Source: an uncultured Alphaproteobacteria bacterium | Lineage (GTDB): Bacteria; Bacteroidota; Ignavibacteria; OLB7 | Assembly (NCBI GenBank): GCA_964462535.1 | Contig: CAYWXV010000001.1 | Location: forward strand, 354,175-418,174 | Reading direction: 5' to 3' | DNA length: 64,000 nt | Part shown: one piece after another, positions 3,811 through 60,132 of the stretch | Numbering within the stretch: the first letter of the stretch is position 1 | Layout of the letters: every line of letters begins with the position of its first letter | Notes under the pieces: generated by a model | Told to the model about the DNA's origin: nothing | The model's database searches: none | The model's input: only the letters and a program-made list of their open reading frames with translations | Translations under genes and position numbers: made by a program

Positions 3811-4520
3811 TCATCGTCGAGCAGAACCAGACGATCACCGGTCGTCTGTTCTGGCTTCCGCCCGCGAACCTCGCGAATGACGACGTCCGGCCGGTCGACA
3901 CGCGCACGATGGGGCATCGGTGCGCCTCGATGGTCACCGTCGTAGTAGTGAAGCGTTCGACCTCTAGTTGTCTGAATCATCAGGAGGGGCCCACGCCCCT
4001 CATCTTGCACGAACACCACCTCCCCCTTTCCCATTTCGCCTCGCTCCCCTGGGCTGAGCTGCGATAACACCAGTTCGAACGATGCAGTCGCAACAAGATG
4101 GTGACAGCATCGCGAAATGAATTCAACACCCGATGGCGCGCCCTGGTCCGACGGCATCATGATGGATATTGGAGTCTTTCGTCCGAGTACGCGTGAGTAG
4201 TTGACGAACGCACAGACACCCCTGGCGTACGAAACCGAGGCCGAGGTCAGGATGATCCCCCGGATTCCGAGGAGTCGTTTCAGTTTTGACTCCTGATACA
4301 ACGCCGACAACATATGTGAGGTCGGATTGATCAGAACGACAGCACCTTCGTACGCAACGAGTGTCCCGATGGTCGTCACGTCGTCCATCAGGAAGACTTC
4401 GGCGAGATGGCGCTTATCGAACCAGACTCTTTTCGTGAACATGTACCGGGCGATGAGAGAGATTGGATGTTCGCGGCTATCGACTATATCCGGTGCGGAC
4501 ACGATTCGGGGTGCTCGCAT
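3801..4520 (-). CDS. hypothetical protein (alpha/beta-like; possibly a degenerate MBL-fold relative)
   Basis: 239 aa ORF with non-repetitive, protein-like composition. Co-directional with and downstream of fur. No confident family match by eye. Confidence 0.4.
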   Translation of the reverse strand: MRAPRIVSAPDIVDSREHPISLIARYMFTKRVWFDKRHLAEVFLMDDVTTIGTLVAYEGAVVLINPTSHMLSALYQESKLKRLLGIRGIILTSASVSYARGVCAFVNYSRVLGRKTPISIMMPSDQGAPSGVEFISRCCHHLVATASFELVLSQLSPGERGEMGKGEVVFVQDEGRGPLLMIQTTRGRTLHYYDGDHRGAPMPHRARVDRPDVVIREVRGRKPEQTTGDRLVLLDDDQR

Positions 4521-5065
4521 TCGGCAAAGATCTGGAACGAATGATCCACAACTTTCAAGCCGGCCTTCTCGGCGACCTGTTTACGAATGCTGAGAAGCTG
4601 CGGATGAACGAACTCAGAGATGTGCCCGCAGATGACACAGATCAGGTGATCGTGATGCGGCTCATCAAAGCCGACTTCGTAGTAGCTCCGACCACTCCGG
4701 AAGTTGTGCTTGATGATCAAACCAGCCTTCTCCAACAGCTCCAACGTCGAGTAGACAGTGGCACGGCTGATCGACTGCTTGTCGACCACCATGGACGCAT
4801 AGAGCTCATCCGCATTGAAGTGACCAACACGATTCAGGACCGCGTCGAGAATCTTGTACCGCTCTGGCGTTGAGCGATAGTGCCCGTTTGCCAGAAATCG
4901 TTGAAAGGTCTTGAGCGCCTGCTGCTTCAACTCGTCACTAAGCACGCGATCCGATTCCAACAGAGCTTTCGACTCCAACTCGTCGACCGGGACTGAATTT
5001 TCCCTGTGGTCGGTCTGAGTTGTCTCGCGACGGACTGTGGTTCGCTGGGTACCTGCCTGTTTCAT
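4484..5065 (-). CDS. fur: Fur family transcriptional regulator
   Basis: C-terminal HHDHLICVICG...CEHPESCPH metal-site motifs and a winged-helix region (ERYKILDAVL). Carries a ~45 aa N-terminal extension, so the true start may lie further in. Confidence 0.85.
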   Translation of the reverse strand: MKQAGTQRTTVRRETTQTDHRENSVPVDELESKALLESDRVLSDELKQQALKTFQRFLANGHYRSTPERYKILDAVLNRVGHFNADELYASMVVDKQSISRATVYSTLELLEKAGLIIKHNFRSGRSYYEVGFDEPHHDHLICVICGHISEFVHPQLLSIRKQVAEKAGLKVVDHSFQIFAECEHPESCPHRI

Positions 5066-5086: not shown

Positions 5087-7462
5087 TCACGAACGGATGT
5101 GTGCGTGGGCCGAACCTGGTGGCATGGATGTGAGGCCCTCGGCAACCTGCTCGGGGGCGGCATCCCCAATGACGAGCGCAACTTCGCGACGCCTGCGAAC
5201 AATGGCAAAAGCAAATCCACCGACCATGATAATCACGCCGGCCCAGACGAAGGAGATGAACGGTTTGACCGACACGTCGACTACGACAACGGGTTTTGAG
5301 GGGGGTGATGGCCGCGAAGACGACTTGAATGCAAGCACAACCTGCGAGTTCGCGAGGTTCTCTTGATCGCTGACGATCCCGGCCATGCCGACCGAAACAT
5401 CGGTCCCCGCAATCTTTTTCGGAATATAGGCGCCTGTCGACATCACATATTCCGTGGTTACGAAGAACGAGGTATCGGGCCGCGTAATCTCCAGAATCGC
5501 ACTCTGTTTCCCCTCGGTCTGGGCTCGACTCATGTCGAAGCGCTCGAAGCGAACCGAGATTGTTGAGTCAAACGGAACAGCAGCCCGTTCGCCCTTGCGC
5601 AGCTGTGCAGTTGGGTCACCACCATCGTCTTCAAGAGCCTTCGGGGAAACGTAAATGTCTCTGGATGGGTAGTAGAGAATACCCGGCTCCAGGAAGGGCG
5701 TCTCGCGCTTGTTGAAGTCACTTAGAAAAGTGACGGGACCGACGGTGTACGTGTCGTCGCCCCGCTTCAGCACAATGTTGTGCCGGTACTTCTCACGATC
5801 GGTCTTCTCGAGTTCGGTCCTTTCGGGACCGGTATACGTTGCCGTATAGTCGAACACTTTGGTGGGGACACCCTGGACCAATCGAACGTGCTGTGTTTCG
5901 GTATACCGTGCTGTGAATATGATGCCGAGCATCATGAGCGAGACGCCGGCGTGCGAAATGTATGCACCGATGAATCGAGGGTTCCCTCGGACAACGCGAG
6001 CGCCAACTTGCGTGTTGACAACGATGGCCAGAATGGACCCGAAGCCCAACGCAAGGTAGATGGGATCCGCAACTCCAAGGGCGAACAATCCGATCGTCCC
6101 GAGCAACGCGATACCCCCAGCGATCCACATTCCCTTCGCGAATTCCTCCCTCTCCGTGTTCCTCCACTTCAAACGCATGCTGATGCCATTCAGAAGGACG
6201 ATGGCGAGCGCAATGGGTAGATGAAGGTTGTTATAGAAATCGGTGGGTACAGCAGCCTTTGGCTTACCTATGAGCGGCATGATTAGCGGCCACGAGGTTC
6301 CAATCAGCACGACCGTTGAGGACGCAAGCAGCACCGCCGATCCAATCGCCAACGCGTTCTCGCGTGACAATAGTGGGAAGCGAATTGGGGCCTGTTGAAG
6401 CTCCTTCCAACGCATCAGCAGCAGGCCGAAGCCCAGGCCCAGAAACGTGAGGAGAATCACCAGCAACACGAAGTAGACGAAACCACCCGGTGATACGAAG
6501 CTATGCACAGAGGTATCGCCTAGGACACCGGAGCGCGTCAGGAAGGTCGAGTACAGGATCAAGCCCCATGCGGCAACGGCCAGCGCAAAATTTGTCCGCA
6601 CCAGACCACCCACGCGCATCTGGTCGCCAGGCTTCCTCGGAATGGCCCCGGTCCGCTTCTGTACAAGCATTGTGTGAACAAGCGCGACGCATGCAAGCCA
6701 CGGTATCAGGCTCGAGTTTTCGACGGGATCCCACGCCCAGAATCCTCCCCATCCAAGCGTCTCGTAGGCCCACCATCCACCCAGCATGATTCCAAAACCG
6801 AGCGCCATCGACGCAAAGAGCGCCCATGGCAACGATATCGTGATCCATCGTTGGTAATCGCGTTTCAGTAGCCCTGCAACAGCGAAGACAAACGGGACCG
6901 TCATAGATGCGAAGCCGAGGAAGAGTATTGGGGGGTGAATCGTAATCCAGAGGTTTTCCAGCTGTGGATTCAGGCCTCTTGGGGTCGGAATGAAGTCAGC
7001 GGGGATCTTCTCGTCGGGGAACGACTGAAAGATCGTGTGAAACGGAGACTTCACCGTCAGGATGACGAGCAGGAGCGAAATCACAAGCATGAGGGGGATC
7101 ATGGTGTGTGTCTCGTACCCAACTCGCTGCGAGTAACTGTAGACGAAGATCCCGATGATGCAGGTCATCAGCGTCCAGAGCATGAAACTTCCCTCCTGCC
7201 CTGCATAGAAAGAGGCTATCTGGAGCGGGCGCGAAAGGTTGCCAGAGGAATGCTGGTAGATGTACGTGAACTGATACTGGTGCGACAGAATCAAATACAT
7301 CAGGTACGCCGAAGCGCCCAGGAACGTGACGACCGAGAGGTGGAAGCAGGTTCGCGCTACCTGAAGGTCGCGGTGATCCTGTCGTCGCAGCGTCAGTACA
7401 TACGCCACCAACGAAGCAAGCGCGGATGCCAGTGACGCGGAAATCGCGAATGATCCAAACAT
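5087..7462 (-). CDS. ccmF: cytochrome c-type biogenesis protein CcmF (heme lyase)
   Basis: 791 aa polytopic membrane protein. WWD domain WWAYETLGWGGFWAWDPVENSSLIPWL. The N-terminus follows the CcmF pattern (...QHSSGNLSRPLQIASFYAGQEGSFMLWTL). Confidence 0.85.
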   Translation of the reverse strand: MFGSFAISASLASALASLVAYVLTLRRQDHRDLQVARTCFHLSVVTFLGASAYLMYLILSHQYQFTYIYQHSSGNLSRPLQIASFYAGQEGSFMLWTLMTCIIGIFVYSYSQRVGYETHTMIPLMLVISLLLVILTVKSPFHTIFQSFPDEKIPADFIPTPRGLNPQLENLWITIHPPILFLGFASMTVPFVFAVAGLLKRDYQRWITISLPWALFASMALGFGIMLGGWWAYETLGWGGFWAWDPVENSSLIPWLACVALVHTMLVQKRTGAIPRKPGDQMRVGGLVRTNFALAVAAWGLILYSTFLTRSGVLGDTSVHSFVSPGGFVYFVLLVILLTFLGLGFGLLLMRWKELQQAPIRFPLLSRENALAIGSAVLLASSTVVLIGTSWPLIMPLIGKPKAAVPTDFYNNLHLPIALAIVLLNGISMRLKWRNTEREEFAKGMWIAGGIALLGTIGLFALGVADPIYLALGFGSILAIVVNTQVGARVVRGNPRFIGAYISHAGVSLMMLGIIFTARYTETQHVRLVQGVPTKVFDYTATYTGPERTELEKTDREKYRHNIVLKRGDDTYTVGPVTFLSDFNKRETPFLEPGILYYPSRDIYVSPKALEDDGGDPTAQLRKGERAAVPFDSTISVRFERFDMSRAQTEGKQSAILEITRPDTSFFVTTEYVMSTGAYIPKKIAGTDVSVGMAGIVSDQENLANSQVVLAFKSSSRPSPPSKPVVVVDVSVKPFISFVWAGVIIMVGGFAFAIVRRRREVALVIGDAAPEQVAEGLTSMPPGSAHAHIRS

Positions 7463-7482: not shown

Positions 7483-7845
7483 CTAGTGAATGGTCATGCC
7501 TGTGGCGTGAAAGTAGTCTCCGTGCGAATGCCCCGATACCGAGACGGACACCTTCCCCTTGTACGCATTCTTGATGTCGGCCACCGACACCGGATCCTGT
7601 CCAGCATACTGGACCCTCGATGCCGTCCCCCCTGCATCCTTCATTGTAAACACGAGATCGCCATCCGCGTCCTCGACCTGATCAGAGGCAATCGTGCCGA
7701 CGACGATCACCTTCTTCTTCGAGTCGTTTACGGAAGCGGCCTGGCTGAATGTGAGCTCCGGAATGTCGACCGTGGCCAATCCATACCACGTCGTCAGGCC
7801 CGCAATGAGCACGAACGCCACGATGAACACGCTTCTTCTTGTCAT
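7483..7845 (-). CDS. CcmE-like heme chaperone paralog (His-type, truncated immediately after the His)
   Basis: OB-fold core (VIVVGTIASDQVEDADGDLVFTMKDAGGTASRVQYAGQDP) aligns with CcmE. The C-terminus reads GHSHGDYFHATGMTIH-stop, so the protein ends at the position of the heme-binding His and has no downstream Tyr. Start taken at Met21 (7845) of the ORF to avoid overlap with the upstream paralog. Confidence 0.55.
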   Translation of the reverse strand: MTRRSVFIVAFVLIAGLTTWYGLATVDIPELTFSQAASVNDSKKKVIVVGTIASDQVEDADGDLVFTMKDAGGTASRVQYAGQDPVSVADIKNAYKGKVSVSVSGHSHGDYFHATGMTIH

Positions 7846-7861
7846 TACATTCCCGGTAGTG

Positions 7862-8257
7862 TCAGCTTCCACTCTGCTTCTCAAATCCGGACGCATCCGA
7901 CTCATACTTCGACGGGCACTTCGTCAGAATGCTGGAGCAATGGAATGTGTTGTTCTCGACATATCCCGTCGCAACCATTGAGGTCGCCAATTCAAAGTTG
8001 TTTGGCTTGGCACCATCGTACTGCACCTGCATTGTACCACCCTTGTCGTCCCGCATGGTGAACTGGAAGAGGTTGTTCTGTGAATCGTACTGAGTCCCCT
8101 TGTTCTTGACCCAGGTCCCTGCAATCTGGACTTTGCGACCAGTCGATGCTGCGGATACGAAATCGGAGTATTCGATCTTCTTGTTCTCTAGCGTCAACAC
8201 CGTCGTGACCACAACGAGCATTGCCGCCAGCATTCCTATTACATACTTCATTCGCAT
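7862..8257 (-). CDS. ccmE: cytochrome c maturation heme chaperone CcmE, CXXXY variant
   Basis: 131 aa. N-terminal TM anchor and OB-fold core. C-terminal motif LTKCPSKYE (C-P-S-K-Y) sits where E. coli has LAKHDENY, i.e. the Cys-type CcmE described for archaea and Desulfovibrio. Confidence 0.85.
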   Translation of the reverse strand: MRMKYVIGMLAAMLVVVTTVLTLENKKIEYSDFVSAASTGRKVQIAGTWVKNKGTQYDSQNNLFQFTMRDDKGGTMQVQYDGAKPNNFELATSMVATGYVENNTFHCSSILTKCPSKYESDASGFEKQSGS

Positions 8258-8278: not shown

Positions 8279-8443
8279 CTACCGTACTGAATCGTGACCA
8301 TTCGCTTGCACCACACGTGCCAGACTCGATTCCATCTTGCGAAGCCTTGCGTCAAGGCGGAGCAGATAGAACAGGACCCCCAGCATTACGATCAATGCCA
8401 CGACCAGCGCGGCGAACATTGAGTGATCTATGAAGAACTGCAT
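8279..8443 (-). CDS. ccmD: heme exporter protein CcmD (small membrane protein)
   Basis: Not in the ORF track (54 aa). Hand translation gives MQFFIDHSMFAALVVALIVMLGVLFYLLRLDARLRKMESSLARVVQANGHDSVR: one TM helix followed by a basic tail, located between ccmC and ccmE as in canonical ccm operons. Confidence 0.5.
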   Translation of the reverse strand: MQFFIDHSMFAALVVALIVMLGVLFYLLRLDARLRKMESSLARVVQANGHDSVR

Positions 8444-8448
8444 CGCTG

Positions 8449-9576
8449 CTATACCTCATTCCGAATTGTTGAGTGTTCAATATCCTGCAGCTGTGGCGCT
8501 GAGGTCTCTCGATCCGCCTCTTCTCCGGCAATCACTCGTCGCGCAAGACGATGATTCGCAATGGCCATTCGGACCGATACATTCACCGTCCAGAAGAAGA
8601 GGAGCGAAATGCTGAGCATCGAGAGCCCAAAGAGAATCTGCTTTACTGGATTGAGGGCGTCGGTATCGCTCGAGAGCACGGGACCACTATCTCCGCTCCC
8701 CATCGATCCCGGATGCAAACCGGCCTCGGTTCTTGGAAAGATGAAGATGAAGTATACCACGGGTAGGGCCAGAAGAAGGAGATAGACGGCCGACAGCCGT
8801 TTGCGGAGTTCTTCATCGCTCAACGCCGAGCGGAGGGCGAAATAGGCAGCGAAGATCACAAGGGTCGCAAAGATCGACACCTGGCGCGGATCGAAACTCC
8901 AGAATTCACCCCATTGCAAACGGGCCCAGAATGAACCCGAGACGGTCGCCAGGACACAGAAGAGAAGCCCGGCGGCGGCAGTCCCGGCCGCCTTCAGATC
9001 GTCCTCGGCGTCCTTCTTCCTGAGGTAGCGCATGCCAAAGAACGCAGCCACAAACCATGCTAGCGTCGCCACCCATGCGGCCGGAACGTGGAAATAGAGA
9101 TTCCGGGCCGTCTCCTCCAGTTGAGCGTTCAACGGAATCGTTGCAAACGGATTGACGTCTGACACGCGGCGCGCGTGGAAGTACCCATCGTCTTCGACGA
9201 ATCGGGAAACAAGAATGACCACGTCGCCAACGCGAAAGGGGAATCGCCCAGCCTCAAAGATCTCCCCCTCTGGTACCACCTCGTCCGTCTCCCCTCTCGA
9301 GTCCTTCAACAGGATCGTCGGCCTGGTGGAGGTCGGTAGCTCAACGACCGTCCCCTTGATCGACATCTCCGCGGTCGCCCCCCTATTCTTGGCCACTCTC
9401 TTTGCTGCGCCAAAATCGCCACCTGTTGGAATCGTAAAGACGAGGACGACGAGTGCAACATTGAGGAACACCGTCATCCATCGCCACCACGATGGATTCG
9501 GTCGCGAGAGTCCACCGGGCCAGAGCCCCAACACAACCCCCAGAATCGTGCCACCGGCGATGATTAGCGCCTTCAT
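8449..9576 (-). CDS. ccmC: heme exporter protein CcmC with N-terminal CcmE-like OB-domain extension
   Basis: The C-terminal ~225 aa carry CcmC hallmarks (YFHVPAAW; WWD motif LQWGEFWSFDPRQ). The N-terminal ~150 aa add two TM helices and a soluble domain (MSIKGTVVEL...RVGDVVILVSRFVEDDGYFHARRV) that resembles the CcmE OB core but has no His/Cys heme motif. Confidence 0.7.
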   Translation of the reverse strand: MKALIIAGGTILGVVLGLWPGGLSRPNPSWWRWMTVFLNVALVVLVFTIPTGGDFGAAKRVAKNRGATAEMSIKGTVVELPTSTRPTILLKDSRGETDEVVPEGEIFEAGRFPFRVGDVVILVSRFVEDDGYFHARRVSDVNPFATIPLNAQLEETARNLYFHVPAAWVATLAWFVAAFFGMRYLRKKDAEDDLKAAGTAAAGLLFCVLATVSGSFWARLQWGEFWSFDPRQVSIFATLVIFAAYFALRSALSDEELRKRLSAVYLLLLALPVVYFIFIFPRTEAGLHPGSMGSGDSGPVLSSDTDALNPVKQILFGLSMLSISLLFFWTVNVSVRMAIANHRLARRVIAGEEADRETSAPQLQDIEHSTIRNEV

Positions 9577-9582
9577 TTGGTA

Positions 9583-10257
9583 TCAGTCTCTCCAGAGATA
9601 GTCAAACAGGAAGTATCCAACGATAATGATTGCTGCGCTGTAGGCGGCCAGGAGCGCGATGTCGTCGCCGAGACTGGAAAAGGCGACCACCGACACCGTT
9701 CGGCGTATCAGGTCGACGCCAAGCAGAATTGTTGGCAGCAAGACCGGGAAGGCAAGGACAGGATACAGGGCCCCCTTGGCGCCGGCGCGAGCGATCAACG
9801 CCGCAATGAGCGTGAGTGCGCCGGCAAACGCAAAGCTCATCAGCACAACGACAAGAGCGAACGGAAGCGGAGATCCGATGCCCCGATCCGCAATCATGAT
9901 CGCGAAGAGGAACGCGAGGGCCCCGTTACCCAGCACGGCCAGAATGAGGTTGACACCAAGCTTTCCGACGAAGACGGGCGTGGGAGGAAGGAGGTGACGG
10001 AGCAGAAGCGAGGTCCCACGCTCCTCCTCGCTCACAAACGTCCGGGCGAGTCCGGTAACACCGGTGAAGAACATCGCGGTCCAGAACAGACCGGCTATAA
10101 CACCATTCGACAGACGTTCGCCCCAAGAACCAAAGGCCATAACGGAGACCACCACGACCACGAACATGCCCAGGGCATTCAGCGCATATCGGGTCCGAAA
10201 TTCGCCTCGTAAGTCCTTGCGTGCGACCGCAAGTGATTGCCGGAGGAGGGATGGCAT
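9583..10257 (-). CDS. ccmB: heme exporter protein CcmB (ABC permease)
   Basis: 224 aa, six TM helices, typical CcmB length and hydrophobicity. Immediately upstream of ccmC on the same strand. Confidence 0.75.
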   Translation of the reverse strand: MPSLLRQSLAVARKDLRGEFRTRYALNALGMFVVVVVSVMAFGSWGERLSNGVIAGLFWTAMFFTGVTGLARTFVSEEERGTSLLLRHLLPPTPVFVGKLGVNLILAVLGNGALAFLFAIMIADRGIGSPLPFALVVVLMSFAFAGALTLIAALIARAGAKGALYPVLAFPVLLPTILLGVDLIRRTVSVVAFSSLGDDIALLAAYSAAIIIVGYFLFDYLWRD

Positions 10258-10488: not shown

Positions 10489-12543
10489 CTACCGCATTAC
10501 TTCAACCGCGCTCGACTCGACATATCGCCCACCCACCGAAAGCACGATGAAGTATCTTCCTGCACCTGCGCTACGCCCCAATCCATCGTTCCCATCCCAT
10601 CGCGTCGAATAGGTCCCACGACGGTGCTCGCCACAAACGAGCCTGCGAACAATCTGGCCGCGAATGTCGACCACGGTGAGGTCAACCAAACCTGACTCGC
10701 CTGCAACATAGCGTACTTCGGTCCCCTCCGTGAGCGGGTTGGGTACACACGATTCGATCCGCGTCGGCCCCAAGGAGATATCCTGCTCGAGCACGCCAAT
10801 CGTGTACCGGCCGAACAAACGTCCATACCCGGCCGCCAGAGAGTCGGCGAGGTCAAGATCGGAGCGCTCGTTCCACAGCCCGTAGTACCGGTCCTGCGTT
10901 CCGAACGCGGGCGCCTCCGGCGTGGAAGCGGCGGAGTTGCGTGAGCCCCGTCCATTCCGATGGCAACTTTCCGAGCACGTATTCAGCATTCCTCCTCTGA
11001 AATCACCGGCGTAGTCCAACGTCAGCGATGGAGGGAGCACTTTGAATCCGTGACTACTGAACTCGTACAGCCGTTTACCTGGAAGATCGACGAACCCGAT
11101 TGAGGCCGTCTTGGTGAAATGGCAATTGACGCACTGGGAAACCGCCTGATCGTGTTGTGAATGTAGGTTGACGATTCGGCCACCCCTCGCGAGGCTTGGC
11201 CCCGTGTCCCTCATGTCCGGGTGGCACGCACCGGCAACACAACCCGCGTTGGAATCAAGGCTATACCAGTTCCGGTTGAGCTGATACGGCAGCTCACCCC
11301 CGAACGAAGAATCGTATTTGTTGAAGTGAATCGTGTGACAACTCCAACATCCATTCGAGAAGACCTGGCGCGAATGGGGGACCGAAGTCCTGTAGTCCTG
11401 TCCCGTCTGATGATGCGCATACGAGGTGGTGTTATCGGCCCACGTCTGCCTACCGGTCACGGAATCCCGTCTGAACTGCCCGAGGGACACGCCTGGGACA
11501 TAATGTTGTGGTGTCGCATCATCGTACGCGAATGGATGCTTCCCCATCGTCGAAACGTATCGTTCGTGGCACTGGCCGCACAGATCAAGCTTGAGTTCCG
11601 TCCCCATGTACGTTCCGGGGAATTGAGCACTCTTGCCGGGTGACACAATGTTGTCTGACGTAGGTTGGGCAACGTGTTGGGATCCAGGTCCGTGGCAACT
11701 CTCACACCCGATCACGATGTTGGCATCGCGGGCCATCGAATCGGTCCCATACGATCCAGGATACTGGACGGTGAACACGTCGGCCGTATCAGCACGATCC
11801 ACCGTCAGCGTCGCGCCGTTCACATGACACGGGGCGCACGCCTCGTGCCAACTCTGCTTCCTGAATGTCGGAGACGTGAACTCGTAAAACCTTCCTTCGC
11901 CGGTGAGCGTGTCGATATCGAACCACCTCTTGAAGTCGAGGAAATAGAATGCCCCACCGTGCTCCGACCGCTGCTTGTAACCCGGGAGTGCGAATTGAAA
12001 TGGTGGGATATAGTAGCGGCCATCAATATCGACCAGGAATCTCTCGATCCAGGCACGCCCTCCGTATGTATACGCGACCCTCATGGGTGGCGTCGAGTCG
12101 CCCCCCCCGCTGAAGGACAATTGTATGGCGTAGTCCCGACCAATCCCCTGCTTGAAAAGTCGGATTCTGAGTGTGTCGCGTCCCGGGTAGCGAATCTGCA
12201 CGACCGGGGTAGAAATCATAGTGTCGCGCTCAAACATGCGGTCCAGTATCACCGTCTCAGGTGTTGGACGGAGATGGATCTGCTGGTGCACGGTCTGCTT
12301 GAAGAGGACAAGACCCTTGTAGTCGCTCGTCCCGGAGTAGCCTGCGAAGTGGCAGGCGGCAGTGACGCAGGTCTGTTGTCCAACGTACTCGCTAGGGCCG
12401 GGTCCGTCGAACGACTGCAGGGTGGTTACCCGGGTCAGCAATGCTGCGCCCGTCACCAACCCAACAAGTAGGATGAGCCTGTTCAATGTCACGACGTGTT
12501 TGTTCGAGCTACAGGCATGCGCCTTAACGAAAGAGGGACGCAT
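10489..12543 (-). CDS. octaheme c-type cytochrome with T9SS C-terminal sorting domain (paralog A)
   Basis: Signal peptide, five CXXCH motifs (CAPCH, CESCH, CGQCH, CWSCH, CVNCH), two CX4CH (CVTAACH, CVAGACH) and one CX3CH (CSESCH). C-terminal type-A T9SS CTD (CVPNPLTEGTEVRY...GTYSTRWDGNDGLGRSAGAGRYF...VEVMR). Confidence 0.8.
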   Translation of the reverse strand: MRPSFVKAHACSSNKHVVTLNRLILLVGLVTGAALLTRVTTLQSFDGPGPSEYVGQQTCVTAACHFAGYSGTSDYKGLVLFKQTVHQQIHLRPTPETVILDRMFERDTMISTPVVQIRYPGRDTLRIRLFKQGIGRDYAIQLSFSGGGDSTPPMRVAYTYGGRAWIERFLVDIDGRYYIPPFQFALPGYKQRSEHGGAFYFLDFKRWFDIDTLTGEGRFYEFTSPTFRKQSWHEACAPCHVNGATLTVDRADTADVFTVQYPGSYGTDSMARDANIVIGCESCHGPGSQHVAQPTSDNIVSPGKSAQFPGTYMGTELKLDLCGQCHERYVSTMGKHPFAYDDATPQHYVPGVSLGQFRRDSVTGRQTWADNTTSYAHHQTGQDYRTSVPHSRQVFSNGCWSCHTIHFNKYDSSFGGELPYQLNRNWYSLDSNAGCVAGACHPDMRDTGPSLARGGRIVNLHSQHDQAVSQCVNCHFTKTASIGFVDLPGKRLYEFSSHGFKVLPPSLTLDYAGDFRGGMLNTCSESCHRNGRGSRNSAASTPEAPAFGTQDRYYGLWNERSDLDLADSLAAGYGRLFGRYTIGVLEQDISLGPTRIESCVPNPLTEGTEVRYVAGESGLVDLTVVDIRGQIVRRLVCGEHRRGTYSTRWDGNDGLGRSAGAGRYFIVLSVGGRYVESSAVEVMR

Positions 12544-12609: not shown

Positions 12610-14607
12610 CTATCTCACGAGCACTACTTGCTCCCCGGTCATCACACCGTTGGAGCTGAGCATTCGAACGAGGTAGGTGCCATTCGGGAGCATATGCCCT
12701 CCGTCGTCAGACCCGTACCACACGCACGTATAGGTGCCCCGGTCATGATCGGAGGCGATCAGCGTTCGAACACGCGCGCCGTTCGTGTTGAATATCTGTA
12801 TGGAGACGGCGCCCGGAACGGTAACGTCGTAACGAATCTCGGTCCGGTTCACCATAGGGTTCGGCGCGATCGTCTTGAGACCAGACCCACCACCCGCATG
12901 CGCGGAAAGACGCACACCTCCGACACTCGGCCAGAAGTCCTTGTAGTACTTCAGCAGCGAGTCAGCCAACCTCTTGTCCGTGATCTCTCCCCACAGCCCG
13001 ATTAGCTGGTCGTTGATACCGAACGAAGGAGCGACCGGTGTCGAGTCTGCAAAATTCCTCGAACCCCTGCCATTGCGGTGACAGCTTGCCGCACATGTGT
13101 TCATCATTCCAAGACCACCCGTGTTGAAGTAGTCTATCGTGATCTGAGGCGATAAGACGCGGAAGTTGTGGTTGCTGAACTCCTGAAGTGGCTTCTGCGG
13201 CAGATCGACGAATCCAATGGATGCTGTCTTGGTGAAGTGGCAGTTGACGCATTGCGATATCTCCTGCGCGTGTTGCGTGTGGAGATTGACCATCATGCCG
13301 TTGCGAAGAGGGCTCGGCCCGACCTCGCGCTTATCAGGGTGACACCCGGACGCAACGCATCCCTGGTTCTCGGCGAGACTATACCAGTTCCGATCAAGCT
13401 GGTAGGGTAGTTCCCCGCCAAACGAGGAGTCATACTTGTTGTAGTGAACAGTATGACAACTCCAGCAGCCGTCCGAGAAGACGTGCGCCAGGTAGGGTTT
13501 CGAGAAACGGAAGTCCTGACCCGTCTGGTGGTGCGCGTACGACGTGACCCCATCCGGCCACCTGTTCATTCCGGTCAGTGAGTCCTTCTGGAAGAGTCGG
13601 AGCGATGAGCCTGGGATAAATGGCTGATCGTTGACTTCATCGTATGCAAAGTTATGTGTCCCACCCGTCGACTTGAACCGCTCGTGACATTGCCCGCAAA
13701 GGTCAAGCTTGAGATCGATGCCGGCCGGCGTCCGGGGAAACTGGCTGCTCTTACCCGGGGAGACAATGTTCTCGGCGGTTGGATTTGCAACGTGCTCCGA
13801 TCCGGGCCCGTGACAGCTCTCGCACCCGATCAGGATGTTCTCGTGCAAGGCCAGAGAATCGGCTCCATCCGATCCAACGAAGTTGAGCGTATAGATCTTC
13901 GCTGTATCACCATCCACGTACGAACGCGTCATACCGTTTATGTGACACGAGGCGCATTGCTCATCCCATGCCTGCTTCTTGAAGGTCGTGGAGCCGAACT
14001 CGTAGAAGACCCCCTCCTGGTTTGACTGGTCGATGCCATACCACTTGCTGAAGTCCAACCAGTAGAACCAACCACCTGTGTCTGCCCGCTCCTTGTACCG
14101 CGGAAGCGAATACTGGAACGGCGGGACGTAATGCCGGCCATCGACTTCGACCAGGTATCGTTCAATCCATCCGCGACCGCCGTAGGTAAATGCCACCTTC
14201 ATCGCGGGCGTGGAGTCACCGCCACCAGAAAAGAAGAGCTGTACGTAATAGTCCTTCTTGTCAGGACTCTTGAAGAGGCGGGCGTTCAACGTGTCGCGTC
14301 CAGGATATCTGATCTGAACGATCGGCGTCGAGATCACCGTGTCCTTGTCGAACATCCGATCGATCACCACCGTCTCTGGTGTTGGGCGCAGGTGAATCTG
14401 CTGATGGAGGGTCTTCTTGAACTCGGCCAGCCCCTTGTAGTCGCTGGCACCGCTATACCCCGATTCATGACAATTGGCCGTGACGCACGTCTGCTGACCC
14501 ACGTATTCACGAGGCGCAGGTCCAGGTTTCGAGTCCACGCTGAACGCGAACGCAGCAACGCCTGCGACGGCGATCGCAAGCGACGCAAGAAGTTTGGGAC
14601 GTTTCAT
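12610..14607 (-). CDS. octaheme c-type cytochrome with T9SS C-terminal sorting domain (paralog B)
   Basis: About 70% identical by eye to paralog A over long stretches, with the same eight heme motifs (CVTANCH, CASCH, CESCH, CGQCH, CWSCH, CVASGCH, CVNCH, CAASCH). Signal peptide MKRPKLLASLAIAVAGVAA; the start is trimmed to that Met (14607). T9SS CTD ends ...NGTYLVRMLSSNGVMTGEQVVLVR. Confidence 0.8.
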   Translation of the reverse strand: MKRPKLLASLAIAVAGVAAFAFSVDSKPGPAPREYVGQQTCVTANCHESGYSGASDYKGLAEFKKTLHQQIHLRPTPETVVIDRMFDKDTVISTPIVQIRYPGRDTLNARLFKSPDKKDYYVQLFFSGGGDSTPAMKVAFTYGGRGWIERYLVEVDGRHYVPPFQYSLPRYKERADTGGWFYWLDFSKWYGIDQSNQEGVFYEFGSTTFKKQAWDEQCASCHINGMTRSYVDGDTAKIYTLNFVGSDGADSLALHENILIGCESCHGPGSEHVANPTAENIVSPGKSSQFPRTPAGIDLKLDLCGQCHERFKSTGGTHNFAYDEVNDQPFIPGSSLRLFQKDSLTGMNRWPDGVTSYAHHQTGQDFRFSKPYLAHVFSDGCWSCHTVHYNKYDSSFGGELPYQLDRNWYSLAENQGCVASGCHPDKREVGPSPLRNGMMVNLHTQHAQEISQCVNCHFTKTASIGFVDLPQKPLQEFSNHNFRVLSPQITIDYFNTGGLGMMNTCAASCHRNGRGSRNFADSTPVAPSFGINDQLIGLWGEITDKRLADSLLKYYKDFWPSVGGVRLSAHAGGGSGLKTIAPNPMVNRTEIRYDVTVPGAVSIQIFNTNGARVRTLIASDHDRGTYTCVWYGSDDGGHMLPNGTYLVRMLSSNGVMTGEQVVLVR

Positions 14608-14804
14608 AAGGCAACGGCAGGGAATTGATGGAGAATGACCGAGCGGGGACCGTCGGCCATTCAAGGCTGAGCGTGGGGGCATGGGGGTGCGTCACGACAA
14701 ACCGGCACTTCTCGCATGCAGTGTTCCAACCGGCCCCAGCGTCTCCACTATGAAAGACACACCAGGCAGTCAGAGGTCGCGCGCCTGATCTCAGATATGT
14801 TGAT

Positions 14805-15683
14805 CTATCGGACTACAGTCAGGCGCCGTGAGAGCGTCCGACCACCTTGAGACATCACGTAAATGTACTCCCCCGCGGGGAGTGATGAAACTACGACGTC
14901 CACTGAGAACGAACCGGGCTCGACGAAACGATCAAACGCTGTCAGCAGGCGATTGCCGGCAAGGCCGAACAATTTAATTGTCACTTGACCCGACTCTTTC
15001 ACAGCGAAGGGAATCATAGTGTTTCGGCTACATGGATTTGGCAGATTCTGCGCCAGTGACATCCCAGTGGGAGGCGCCGAGTCCGTATCCGCACTGGCCG
15101 GCTGCGTATCGATCGTGACGGTGTTGTCACCATCGAATGAGGCGCGGAACTTCCGTAATCCATTCCTGACTGTGCCCGTTCTGGGGGCATCGCGATCGCC
15201 CGCCGGTGGTGTGATCCATGTCCCATCGGGCTCAAAGTTGCTCCCCTGATGACAACAGTGGAAACGGAACTCGAGCGGATCGAAGCTCACCTGGTAATCA
15301 TTCCCATGCGGACAGTACGTTGAAACCGCCGTGAACGCATTCTCCCCCACATCCGCGACACGTGTCACCGCTATCGGGTACCATCCTCTCTTGCACGAAA
15401 ACGCCTCGGTCTCGGCTCTCAACGACGCGGATCCGAGCTCCACGTGATCCGGGTTCAGCAGGAGTTCCTCATCTCTGATCAGTTTGATTGACCCGCCCAC
15501 CTGCGCGAGATCAGGGTAATCGCTCAACCGGATCTGAATCAGCGTGGACAGCTTTCCGGGCACGTCGCCTGGTAGTGAAAGCCGTCCCAGCACGACACCG
15601 CGCGCTGCAACGGAGACGACCACAAGACCGGCAGCCCGCTTGAGGAAGTCCCGTCGGGAATCATCGGCAGTATTCTCCTTCAT
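14805..15683 (-). CDS. Rieske-like [2Fe-2S] domain protein with Tat signal and T9SS C-terminal domain
   Basis: Twin-arginine signal SRRDFLKRAAGLVVV. Rieske-like box I CPHGN; after 15 residues comes HCCHQGSNFEPDG, where a canonical protein would have CPCHGS. C-terminal T9SS CTD (LAQNLPNPCSRNTMIPFAV...GEYIYVMSQGGRTLSRRLTVVR). Start trimmed to the Met preceding the RR motif. Confidence 0.55.
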   Translation of the reverse strand: MKENTADDSRRDFLKRAAGLVVVSVAARGVVLGRLSLPGDVPGKLSTLIQIRLSDYPDLAQVGGSIKLIRDEELLLNPDHVELGSASLRAETEAFSCKRGWYPIAVTRVADVGENAFTAVSTYCPHGNDYQVSFDPLEFRFHCCHQGSNFEPDGTWITPPAGDRDAPRTGTVRNGLRKFRASFDGDNTVTIDTQPASADTDSAPPTGMSLAQNLPNPCSRNTMIPFAVKESGQVTIKLFGLAGNRLLTAFDRFVEPGSFSVDVVVSSLPAGEYIYVMSQGGRTLSRRLTVVR

Positions 15684-15820
15684 CGCCACGTACTTTATCA
15701 TCCGAGGACCAGCCCGAGAGAGGCGCAATTGCGCTGAGCGTGCCCCTTTCTTGGAAGACCCTGATCATACCAATTGGTTACCGAACCCGGTCACCTGGAA
15801 ACGTCTCGAAACGATTGCGT

Positions 15821-33263: not shown

Positions 33264-33971
33264 ATGCTCCAGGTAGAATCTCTCTCGGTCAGCTATGGCG
33301 CCATTTCGGCGCTCAAGGGAATCAGCTTCACGGTTCCTGATAGGTCGATCGTGACTCTGATTGGTGCGAACGGGGCGGGCAAGACGACAACACTGCGCAC
33401 GATCTCGGGACTCGTTCCTGCTCTCTCCGGTCGTATTGTGTTTAACGGCGAGGACATTCTGAATCGTCCCCCCCACCTGGTCGTCGCGCGTGGTATCAGC
33501 CAGTCCCCTGAAGGGAGAATGATCTTCCCCGGTTTGAGCGTTCAGGAGAATCTGATGCTTGGGGCGTACCTGAGGAAGGATCGGGTGGAAATAGATCGCG
33601 ACCTCGAGTATTGCTACACCATCTTCCCCAGGCTTAAGGAACGGATGAAGCAGGCCGGCGGGACCTTGTCGGGAGGCGAGCAACAGATGCTGGCGATAGC
33701 ACGTGCTCTGATGTCGCGGCCGAAGGTGCTGCTGCTGGACGAACCAAGTCTCGGTATTGCGCCAATACTCGTGAAGCTGATCTTCGAGAAGGTGGTTGAG
33801 ATCAACCGTGACCTCGGGACGACGATTCTGCTGGTCGAACAGAACGCGAACATGGCGTTACAAACCGCCTCGTACGCCTACGTCCTGGAAACGGGCGAGA
33901 TAACTATCGAAGGACCGGCGAGCGATCTGGCCTCAAACGAAGAAGTCCAAAAAGCCTACCTTGGCATGTAG
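33264..33971 (+). CDS. livF: branched-chain amino acid ABC transporter ATP-binding protein LivF
   Basis: Walker A GANGAGKTT, signature LSGGEQQMLAIARAL, Walker B LLLLDEPS. Confidence 0.9.
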   Translation: MLQVESLSVSYGAISALKGISFTVPDRSIVTLIGANGAGKTTTLRTISGLVPALSGRIVFNGEDILNRPPHLVVARGISQSPEGRMIFPGLSVQENLMLGAYLRKDRVEIDRDLEYCYTIFPRLKERMKQAGGTLSGGEQQMLAIARALMSRPKVLLLDEPSLGIAPILVKLIFEKVVEINRDLGTTILLVEQNANMALQTASYAYVLETGEITIEGPASDLASNEEVQKAYLGM

Positions 33972-58287: not shown

Positions 58288-60132
58288 ATGATGCGACCCA
58301 GAGGGGCTGCTGACAACGCGCCAGTAGCTCGATTCACGCTATCCCGCGAATCGCTTTCCGGAGCACGATTCCTGTTGGGATTCCTTGCACCCTACAAGTG
58401 GCGCTTCACGCTCGCGATACTCGCGTTGCTGGGATCATCACTCGCGGGATTGGCCTTCCCTGCAATGACAGGGATGATGATTGACGCCGCTACGCACAGG
58501 CATGAGTCGATCTTCGGTGGCCTGGGTGGGGTCACGCTCGTCTTTCTGGGCATCCTGGGCGCACAGGCCCTGCTCGGGTTCCTCCGTGTCTACCTGAGTA
58601 CAATGGTCGCGGAGCGCGTCATTGCCGACATCCGTTTGCGGCTGTACGCCCGGCTGCTGAAGATGTCCATGACCTTCTTCCACACGCATCGAGTTGGTGA
58701 GTTGACGAGCCGGCTGGGGTCGGACGTGGCGCAGGTCCAGTTCATGATTACGACGGCGCTCGCCGAGTTAATGCGCCAGACAATTCTCCTGATCGGTGGC
58801 ATTGCGCTGGTCACGTGGATCTCACCGCGACTAACGCTGGTCGTGGCTGTGGCAATCCCAATTGTGGTGGTTGTCGCCGTACTCTTTGGTCGACTCTTGC
58901 GCAAGGCCGGACGGAAGATTCAGGACCTCTACGCCAACCTCAATACTGTGGCGGAGGAGACATTCCAGGGCATCGCCGCAGTCAAGGCGTTTACGGCGGA
59001 ACGCCAGGAAACAGAGCGATACGGAAGCACGATTCGGTCAATTATTGCCCTCTCTGTTCGAATGGCCGCCGCCAGGGGTGGGTTCGCCGCCTTTATATCG
59101 TTCGTCCTGTTCGGTGGCGTCGTGGGCATTGTCTGGTACGGCGGCCGCATGGTGGTTGATGGCGCGCTCTCGATCGGTGAGTTGACGTCCTTTGTACTCT
59201 ACGCTCTCTTCGTCGGAGCAGCTATGGGGAGCTTTGCGGATCTCTACGGTTCGTTTCAAGGAGCGCTTGGAGCAAGTGAACGAATCCGCGCACTCTTCAA
59301 CGACGAGACAGAGCGCCTTGACGAGCAAGGGGACGAGATTACTCACGGAACGATCGCGTACCGCGACGTCTCGTTCGCGTATCCAACCCGGCCCGATACG
59401 CAGGTCGTCGACGGAGTGTCGTTCCACGTGGATGCTGGGCGGAGCATCGCACTGGTGGGACCGTCAGGGTCAGGCAAGTCGACCGTCGCCTCGCTGCTAA
59501 TGCGATTTCATGAACCGACGTCGGGGACCATCCTTGTGGACGGGATGAATGCGTCGGACTATCGGCTGGAATCGTACCGCAAGGGAATTGCAATCGTCCC
59601 GCAGGACGTCTTTCTGTTCGGTGGGAGCATCGAGGAGAACATCCGCTATGGGAAACCAGGTGCGTCCGAGGGCGATGTGGTGGCCGCTGCCGAAATGGCG
59701 AACGCACTGGAGTTCATCAACAGACTTCCAGACGGTTTCGGGACTATCGTCGGCGAGCGTGGAGTGCAACTGTCGGGGGGACAACGACAGAGAATTGCAA
59801 TAGCGCGTGCGATCCTGAAGGATCCCAGGGTTCTGATTCTGGACGAGGCAACGAGTTCGTTGGATTCCGAGTCGGAGCGACTGGTTCAGCAGGCACTTGA
59901 CAGAGCGGCAACGGGCCGAACCACGATCATCATTGCTCACAGGCTTAGCACTGTGCGCAATGCTGACACCATTGTGGTGATGCGAAGCGGGCGTGTAATC
60001 GAACGTGGTGCGTATCGGGAGTTGATTGAGGCTGGAGGGGTCTTCGCCCGGCTCGTTGCCCTACAGACCGATGACAACGGGGACGACCTGGATACCACGG
60101 TACTCGAGGACAGGTCTGGCGCGACAGGATGA
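58288..60132 (+). CDS. ABC transporter ATP-binding protein/permease (MsbA-like exporter)
   Basis: Six-TM domain followed by an NBD with Walker [10 protein letters not shown], signature LSGGQRQRIAIARA and Walker B ILILDEATS. Confidence 0.85.
   Translation: MMRPRGAADNAPVARFTLSRESLSGARFLLGFLAPYKWRFTLAILALLGSSLAGLAFPAMTGMMIDAATHRHESIFGGLGGVTLVFLGILGAQALLGFLRVYLSTMVAERVIADIRLRLYARLLKMSMTFFHTHRVGELTSRLGSDVAQVQFMITTALAELMRQTILLIGGIALVTWISPRLTLVVAVAIPIVVVVAVLFGRLLRKAGRKIQDLYANLNTVAEETFQGIAAVKAFTAERQETERYGSTIRSIIALSVRMAAARGGFAAFISFVLFGGVVGIVWYGGRMVVDGALSIGELTSFVLYALFVGAAMGSFADLYGSFQGALGASERIRALFNDETERLDEQGDEITHGTIAYRDVSFAYPTRPDTQVVDGVSFHVDAGRSIALVGPSGSGKSTVASLLMRFHEPTSGTILVDGMNASDYRLESYRKGIAIVPQDVFLFGGSIEENIRYGKPGASEGDVVAAAEMANALEFINRLPDGFGTIVGERGVQLSGGQRQRIAIARAILKDPRVLILDEATSSLDSESERLVQQALDRAATGRTTIIIAHRLSTVRNADTIVVMRSGRVIERGAYRELIEAGGVFARLVALQTDDNGDDLDTTVLEDRSGATG

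Follow-up and report, generated by a model that had tools for sequence, protein, structure and literature searches.

The 64-kb stretch of DNA analysed here (64,000 nucleotides; hereafter the window) carries a ccm operon, which encodes a System I cytochrome maturation pathway, and the ccmC gene of this operon raises a question of architecture. Its open reading frame (ORF; 9576..8449, minus strand) starts 6 nt past the end of ccmB and codes for a protein of 375 amino acids (aa), and in current annotations such proteins are called 'CcsA' or 'heme exporter protein C', with the first 150 residues left without a domain. What is this additional segment, and what might it do in a protein that handles haem? 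CcmC presents haem at a periplasmic WWD/His site, and CcmE carries the haem off covalently. An earlier reading, made from the letters of the window alone (the sequence-only reading), had proposed that an N-terminal, membrane-anchored CcmE-like domain is fused to CcmC. We found support for a CcmE-like domain with an oligonucleotide/oligosaccharide-binding (OB) fold, and evidence that it is not fused to the N-terminus but inserted into CcmC's first periplasmic loop. On balance, we favour the view that this is a variant System I CcmC with a fixed CcmE-derived barrel at the haem hand-off site, where the barrel likely serves as a docking or positioning surface or as a lid.

The long CcmC and its N-terminal segment

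The C-terminal 230 aa form a normal CcmC with a WWD domain, in agreement with the sequence-only reading. This core matches PF01578 over residues 154-276 (E 3.7e-20), with a score of 72.9 that lies over the cut-off of 29.9, and TIGR01191 over residues 149-329 (E 2.9e-21), with a score of 76.2 that lies under the subfamily cut-off of 186. Conservation was read from two alignments, one of long and short CcmCs together (A1, 31 sequences) and one of 73 sequences (A2). In both, H163, V164 and P165 of the NLYFHVP segment (residues 159-165; 9082..9102, minus strand) are invariant, as are W222, D229, P230 and R231 of the WWD motif WGEFWSFDPRQ (residues 222-232; 8881..8913, minus strand) and L287, H288 and P289 of GLHPG (residues 286-290; 8707..8721, minus strand). 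G223, G286 and G290 are invariant in A1 and reach at least 90% in A2, and E154, E155 and R158 reach at least 90%. The two haem-ligand histidines, His163 and His288, are the equivalents of Escherichia coli CcmC His60 and His184, and R158, which lies in LEExAR just ahead of the His163 segment, is the equivalent of R55; the roles of loop 1 and H60 in the E. coli protein have been described (PMC6204919, PMC10457321). All of the residues that handle haem in the CcmC core are retained.

The full-length AlphaFold2 (AF2) model (predicted local distance difference test score, pLDDT, 92.4; predicted template-modelling score, pTM, 0.87) was matched by Foldseek to E. coli CcmC (8ce1_C, E 5.8e-8, TM-target 0.56; 7f02_C, E 8.1e-8, TM-target 0.63). 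With the E. coli protein (PDB 7F02, 7F04, 8CE1) the window protein shares the core of six transmembrane (TM) helices, the WWD motif, the two periplasmic histidines and the R55 equivalent in loop 1, and its gene occupies the same operon position between ccmB and ccmD; it differs in its length (375 aa against 245 aa), with an OB insert of about 90 aa in loop 1 and an extra N-terminal helix. Four of the five features tested for membership are present, namely the WWD motif, the two flanking histidines, a six-helix core superposable on a solved CcmC and a ccm operon context, and only the TIGR01191 cut-off is missed. The window protein is a CcmC.

We found no point in support of a frameshift or misassembly that merged two genes, and several observations refute such an artefact. 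The identical 375-aa protein occurs with the same neighbours on independent contigs from different samples and sequencing runs, and AF2 models it with confidence as a single chain. Among 5.8 billion protein clusters, a search found about 75 full-length ones (345-399 aa, down to 33% identity), which, where annotated, are Chlorobi, Kapaibacterium or Bacteroidetes proteins from metagenome-assembled genomes, and in which the N-terminus MKxL is conserved; the next matches were 234-aa Ignavibacteria relatives that align to the C-terminal half only. We also surveyed ccm loci in one genome per GTDB species (80 loci, with architectures taken from parsed ORFs). About 41 of these loci have short CcmCs, with one helix ahead of the FHVP histidine, about 36 have long forms like the window protein in a continuous ORF, and three (L035, L040 and L065) have CcmCs of about 320 aa with the OB insert only. 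The comparison with orthologs, which the sequence-only reading had put forward as the way to exclude a frameshift, thus does exclude it. The insert is kept even where the sequences have diverged down to identities of 10-15%. The long CcmC is a real variant, conserved within a single lineage of uncultured bacteria (Chlorobiota, Kapaibacteria and Bacteroidota-related).

Comparison with the short relatives indicates which of the N-terminal helices is new. The 234-aa Ignavibacteria CcmCs are 42-45% identical to the window protein overall (47-52% in the best core segment) and share with it a first transmembrane helix (TM1) ending in P, the segment PxIPGLEExARxxFFHVP, a CcmD of the CcmD_alt type and a CcmE with the motif TKCPSKY, but they have no OB insert, no extra N-terminal helix (TM0) and no second CcmE paralog. 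In A1, residues 29-48 of the window protein, ending in IPTGG (9433..9492, minus strand), align with the short-form TM1 ending in AIP, and residues 142-165, NPxxTLPLIPGLEExARNLYFHVP, align with the short-form xPxxWxEFPxIPGLEEKARNIFFHVP. The long forms have about 90 extra residues between TM1 and this FHVP-containing segment, and about 28 extra residues at the N-terminus, with the hydrophobic helix TM0 (residues 2-18, MKxLxIxxGxxLGxxLG; 9523..9573, minus strand), over which AF2 also models a helix. When helix 29-48 was compared with hhalign, it scored 22.8 (68-74%) against the short-form TM1 and 11-13 (2-3%) against the anchors of either CcmE paralog. These comparisons indicate that helix 29-48 is TM1 of CcmC itself and that TM0 alone is an added membrane helix, which makes the barrel an insertion into periplasmic loop 1. 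Of the two TM helices and soluble segment that had been described as added, the soluble segment and one helix remain, and the second helix belongs to CcmC. We also considered that a whole anchored CcmE had been fused to the N-terminus with loss of the CcmC TM1, and rejected this because the membrane helix ahead of the barrel resembles the short-form TM1 rather than the CcmE anchors.

TM0 is missing from the short and from the OB-only CcmCs, and the barrel thus occurs without TM0 in the three loci named above. TM0 is weakly similar in sequence (MKxLxIxxGG) to the anchor of the free CcmE (MKxxYIIGG), with an hhalign score of 15.9 and a P-value of 8e-4. A fused CcmD was rejected as an identity for TM0; a separate ccmD exists, and the hhalign score of TM0 against CcmD is only 12.

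The orientation of these elements can be read from charge and homology. The loop between TM0 and TM1 holds on average 3.0 Lys+Arg and 0.3 Asp+Glu; such a Lys/Arg-rich loop is expected to be cytoplasmic, and the N-terminus would therefore be periplasmic. No membrane helix separates the insert from His163, the equivalent of the periplasmic His60, and from the homology of His163 and the WWD motif, together with the solved E. coli topology (PMC10457321), we strongly infer that the insert is periplasmic. It lies about 10-20 residues upstream of the LEExAR segment and His163, with LEE and R158 kept directly after it, and the barrel is tethered at either end, no more than about 15 residues from the membrane surface and from His163.

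Fold and ancestry of the loop-1 insert

In the full-length and domain-only AF2 models alike, residues 53-141 (9154..9420, minus strand) comprise a helix (55-65) and, after it, five strands (70-79, 88-91, 97-102, 119-127 and 132-141), and the domain-only model has a pLDDT of 88.2. The short strings in which the sequence-only reading had recognised a CcmE OB core correspond to strands of this modelled barrel. When the domain was compared with the PDB by Foldseek, the top 50 matches were almost all OB folds (E 6e-4 to 1e-2), among them RPA, PolD DP1, IF1, ExoVII, the LysRS N-domain, YgiW, Rho and SSB. On these models the insert is predicted to fold as a five-strand OB barrel.

The evidence that this barrel is related to CcmE comes from comparisons of family alignments. 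We compared the insert (73 sequences) with the free haem chaperone of the same operons, CcmE1 (72 sequences from the loci and the window copy), and with a second CcmE paralog, CcmE2 (11 sequences from the loci, the window copy and three close homologs). The insert matched the soluble part of CcmE1 with an hhalign probability of 94.6% (E 7e-8, score 40.8) over 69 columns, with strands 1-5 in register, and CcmE2 with 83% (score 30.5), including the helix ahead of the barrel (GtFxdA against vtFxeA); the positive control, CcmE1 against CcmE2, gave 98.1%. As nulls we used the insert alignment after reversal, column shuffling or block shuffling (8 columns); these scored 9-14 on average, with a maximum of 21. 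The score was 20.6 against E. coli CcmE and 9-12 against IF1, CspA, SSB, S17, staphylococcal nuclease and the RuvA N-domain, an approximate control made with single sequences. Since the matches to the cognate CcmE families lie well above the nulls and the other OB controls, the insert is probably CcmE-related. Furthermore, in two HMMER searches of PDB sequences the sole OB protein recovered was the Desulfovibrio vulgaris CcmE 2kct, a CcmE of the CxxxY variant, aligned in register. HisF matches in the first of the PDB profile searches (alignment A3) were spurious and came from the flanking NPxxTLPLI, and the search was redone on a trimmed alignment (A4).

Several results weigh against this reading. 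No curated family of Pfam or NCBIfam lies above threshold over the first ~150 aa, and the insert has no match to PF03100 or to any NCBIfam family even when E values up to 10 are allowed. With the N-terminal 168 aa as query, BLASTP found nothing against CcmE1 and an E of 0.19 against CcmE2, too weak to use. In an exhaustive HMMER search of the insert profile against 1.84 billion representative proteins no free CcmE was recovered; the matches were limited to a few long CcmCs and to multi-repeat small-barrel proteins. No CcmE structure is among the Foldseek top 50 from the PDB, where the TM-scores to any OB fold are only about 0.5, and the 2kct matches (E 0.2 and 0.8) are non-significant by themselves. 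The insert has no invariant column among its 73 sequences, nor any conserved surface residue by which an interface could be recognised, and it is absent altogether from short-form relatives that share this CcmE and CcmD, so that it is dispensable for the basic reaction. The resemblance to CcmE that the sequence-only reading had noted is thus borne out by profile-profile comparison and, as an OB fold, by AF2 and Foldseek, and finds no echo in Pfam, NCBIfam, HMMER or the best structural matches.

These same points favour an alternative in which the insert is a generic periplasmic OB decoration, for example a stabilising or spacer domain, with neither CcmE ancestry nor a role in hand-off: nucleic-acid-binding OB folds come first in Foldseek, no family search finds CcmE, the insert lacks invariant residues, and short-form CcmCs function with the same CcmE and CcmD. 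We nevertheless consider a generic decoration unlikely, although not negligibly so. It leaves unexplained the hhalign scores to the cognate CcmE families, far over nulls and OB controls, and the selection of 2kct as the only OB protein among PDB sequences. It also has to contend with the retention of the insert despite extensive divergence and with the insertion point itself, which is the loop that contacts the CcmE barrel in E. coli, as mapped by genetics (PMC6204919).

The remaining matches of the segment are weaker. The N-terminal 150 aa gave only sub-threshold matches to DUF4131 (E 0.0028) and SLATT, and CcmE2 a sub-threshold match to DUF4131 (E 0.011). DUF4131 is the N-terminal region of ComEC, TM helices plus an OB fold, from an unrelated pathway, and the similarity, which lies under the gathering score, is probably merely that of a TM-plus-barrel layout. 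A homology search with the N-terminal 148 aa came back empty and is uninformative, as not even the identical protein was recovered. Some of the multi-repeat barrel proteins from the HMMER search (P0130, P0132, P0135 and P0136) have Pfam matches to DUF5818, DUF5666, CcmE, BOF, TOBE and CusF, which hints at a possible broader family of CcmE/BOF-like barrels employed as repeats.

If the insert is derived from CcmE, it has lost what makes CcmE a haem chaperone. The sequence-only reading had reported no haem-ligand motif in the extra segment, and we confirmed this across the family: no His, Cys or Tyr is conserved, and the highest frequencies in any column of the 73 members are 19% for His, 5% for Cys, 21% for Tyr and 36% for Met. 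The histidine of the window sequence YFHARRV occurs in only 12 of the 73 members, and the pattern conserved there is F-x-A. At its C-terminus the barrel passes directly into the CcmC loop, with no H/CxxxY tail. It also lacks the G-x-x-P-N-N-F-[ED] loop, which the free CcmE keeps near-invariant in the long-form and short-form lineages alike, and which corresponds by position to the P100-D101...R104-E105 loop of E. coli CcmE. The latter loop has been reported to contact CcmC (PMC6204919). Compared with the CxxxY type of CcmE (D. vulgaris 2KCT; the archaeal and Desulfovibrio type), the insert shares the OB barrel in register, the helix ahead of the barrel and the periplasmic location, but lacks a membrane anchor of its own, a flexible tail, the C/HxxxY motif, the PNNF[ED] loop for contact with CcmC and a PF03100 match. 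We conclude from these alignments that the insert is most likely a highly diverged CcmE-type barrel and that, in terms of function, it does not belong to the CcmE family.

This loss bears directly on the idea that the barrel is a haem chaperone acting in cis, binding haem non-covalently and substituting in part for CcmE. In its favour, the domain is CcmE-related and lies next to His163, and the window copy has a His in its FHA strand, as CcmE1 and CcmE2 do. However, the scarcity of that His in the family, the absence of any His, Cys, Tyr or Met column above 36% and the missing H/CxxxY tail speak against it, as does the retention of a complete free TKCPSKY CcmE in 72 of the 80 fetched loci (the rest are mostly truncated, or have ccmE beyond the fetched stretch). 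We regard a cis-acting chaperone as very improbable.

Partner proteins and the proposed hand-off

The free chaperone gene ccmE1 (7862..8257, minus strand; 131 aa; PF03100, E 3.4e-16) lies downstream of ccmC. Its product is of the CxxxY type, as is 2KCT, and its motif TKCPSKY (residues 111-117) is invariant in all 73 CcmE1 sequences, the window copy included. Cysteine-variant CcmE proteins are known from Desulfovibrio and archaea (PMC9084895, PMC3884852), and the operon shows the mark of a variant System I, a Cys in place of the haem-binding His of CcmE. In the account given in PMC9084895, which cites Allen 2006 and Goddard 2010, the CxxxY variant is described for systems without CcmH.

The second paralog, ccmE2 (7483..7845, minus strand), codes for a tail-less, membrane-anchored protein of 120 aa, with the same start as in public gene calls, that is related to CcmE1 by BLASTP (E 7e-8) and by the hhalign comparison given above. 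Counting CcmE1, CcmE2 and the insert, the operon thus holds three CcmE-like OB modules, as had been proposed from the sequence alone. CcmE2 has near-invariant G-H-x-H and F-H-A patterns that bring three histidines together at the strand 4-5 hairpin, and these clustered histidines may form a non-covalent haem or metal site. The paralog is restricted to some of the lineages whose CcmC has the OB insert: a homology search found 4 close relatives only, and in the survey it occurs in 10 long-form loci (L004-L008, L011, L015, L016, L023 and L024) and in L029, whose ccmC meets the contig end, and in none of the 41 short-form and none of the three OB-only loci.

Between ccmC and ccmE1 lies a further small gene, ccmD (8279..8443, minus strand), which the sequence-only reading had overlooked. 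Its 54-aa product, a CcmD of the CcmD_alt type, has a single helix and matches TIGR04391 (E 0.0014) and PF20077 (E 0.0026), both under the cut-off. The ORF is called as a gene in public contigs, and the same ccmC-ccmE interval is occupied in about 72 loci.

How might these components work together? Every haem-handling residue is kept in the CcmC core, which argues that the core would still present haem at the WWD site. In the scheme that we propose, the soluble barrel of a CcmE-like protein, comprising the pre-barrel helix and the five-strand OB fold, would have been inserted into periplasmic loop 1, between TM1 and the His163 haem-ligand segment, without an anchor or a haem-binding tail of its own. 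A barrel that lacks anchor, tail, haem-binding residues and CcmC-contact loop is not expected to act as a carrier, and the free TKCPSKY CcmE would still remove haem from CcmC. The barrel could then offer the mobile barrel of CcmE a surface on which to dock or be positioned, and do the same for the tail-less CcmE2 in some lineages; alternatively or in addition, it could act as a lid or shield over the haem held by CcmC. Docking of the chaperones or of haem onto CcmC had been suggested in the sequence-only reading and is plausible, as the E. coli loop makes contact with the barrel of CcmE (PMC6204919). The docking or shielding role is one that we infer with moderate to weak confidence. Because short forms work without a barrel, the barrel would modulate the reaction rather than enable it. 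In the solved CcmABCD/E structure the CcmE barrel lies above CcmB, and in models it lies above CcmC (PMC10457321).

A different partner for the barrel can also be imagined. It might bind apocytochrome or CcmF and so make up for the CcmH/CcmI-type components missing from variant System I. The CcmE of the clade is of the CxxxY kind described, in the source cited above, for CcmH-less systems; no ccmH, ccmG or ccmI lies within the operon, the other ORFs of the window not having been screened for them; and OB folds frequently bind extended ligands. Against this stand the short-form relatives, which share the operon but not the barrel, the absence of a conserved binding surface, and the position of the barrel, which is tethered beside the haem site of CcmC and not to CcmF. 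A role towards apocytochrome or CcmF therefore seems to us distinctly unlikely, less so than a cis-acting chaperone and more so than a generic OB domain, and we retain docking or shielding at the CcmC site as the favoured reading.

A bolder extension of the favoured reading is that the insert, the CxxxY CcmE and, where present, CcmE2 are assembled above the WWD site as a multi-barrel chamber. A pseudo-dimer would form there, with the tethered barrel as its fixed half; this barrel would set the tail Cys of CcmE on the haem vinyl and control release, and CcmE2, with its GHxH...FHA histidines, would be a second, non-covalent haem carrier. We think it unlikely that the whole of this picture holds. 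If true, the chamber would be a natural 'CcmC-CcmE chimera' that fixes an otherwise transient haem-transfer state of System I.

Operon surroundings and implications

The genes are arranged in the order ccmB-ccmC-ccmD-ccmE-ccmE2-ccmF, followed by a Fur-family gene, all on the minus strand. The ccm genes of the related loci follow the same order. ccmB (9583..10257, minus strand; PF03379, E 4.9e-10) is the first gene of the operon and begins about 230 nt downstream of a cytochrome gene. ccmF (5087..7462, minus strand) codes for 791 aa and matches PF16327 (E 1.7e-31), PF01578 (E 1.8e-25) and TIGR00353 (E 4e-73). The C-terminal extension of CcmF (residues ~700-791) contains a weak ResB-like match (residues 706-765, E 0.0012), and related loci encode CcmFs of about 750 to 890 aa. 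We found no ccmA in the 64-kb window; the sole genes for ATP-binding cassette (ABC) ATPases are LivF-like (33264-33971, plus strand) and MsbA-like (58288-60132, plus strand), and both were on this account rejected as CcmA.

Directly after ccmF lies the gene of the Fur-family regulator (4484..5065, minus strand), whose product has an N-terminal extension of about 60 aa. This gene position is shared only with the two closest genome loci (L004, 11517-12074; L005, 10903-11427). The placement of a Fur-family gene right after ccmF, in the window and in those two loci, suggests that the operon is under iron- or haem-responsive control.

Directly upstream of the operon are two paralogous cytochromes of about 685 aa (10489-12543 and 12610-14682, minus strand), each with five CxxCH motifs and a C-terminal sorting domain of the type IX secretion system (T9SS) type, and adjoining them is a 307-aa protein (14805-15728, minus strand) that bears the same T9SS-type sorting tail. 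These upstream sorting-domain proteins are likely multihaem proteins, secreted or displayed on the outer surface, that this maturation system serves as its clients.

A limited search of the full-text literature, which is not proof of absence, found no description of a CcmC with an OB insert or of a tail-less, His-rich CcmE paralog, and the OB-insert CcmC is apparently undescribed so far. The transfer of haem from CcmC to CcmE is still debated, and the complex between them is transient. A CcmE-derived barrel in the very CcmC loop to which genetics has mapped the contact (PMC6204919) would be a natural, stable handle on the geometry of the hand-off, for structural work and for deletion or swap experiments. 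The finding also indicates that the textbook scheme of nine proteins understates the modularity of System I: a single clade holds plain CcmCs, CcmCs with the OB insert only and CcmCs with both TM0 and the OB insert, and the same clade adds a second, tail-less, His-rich CcmE paralog.

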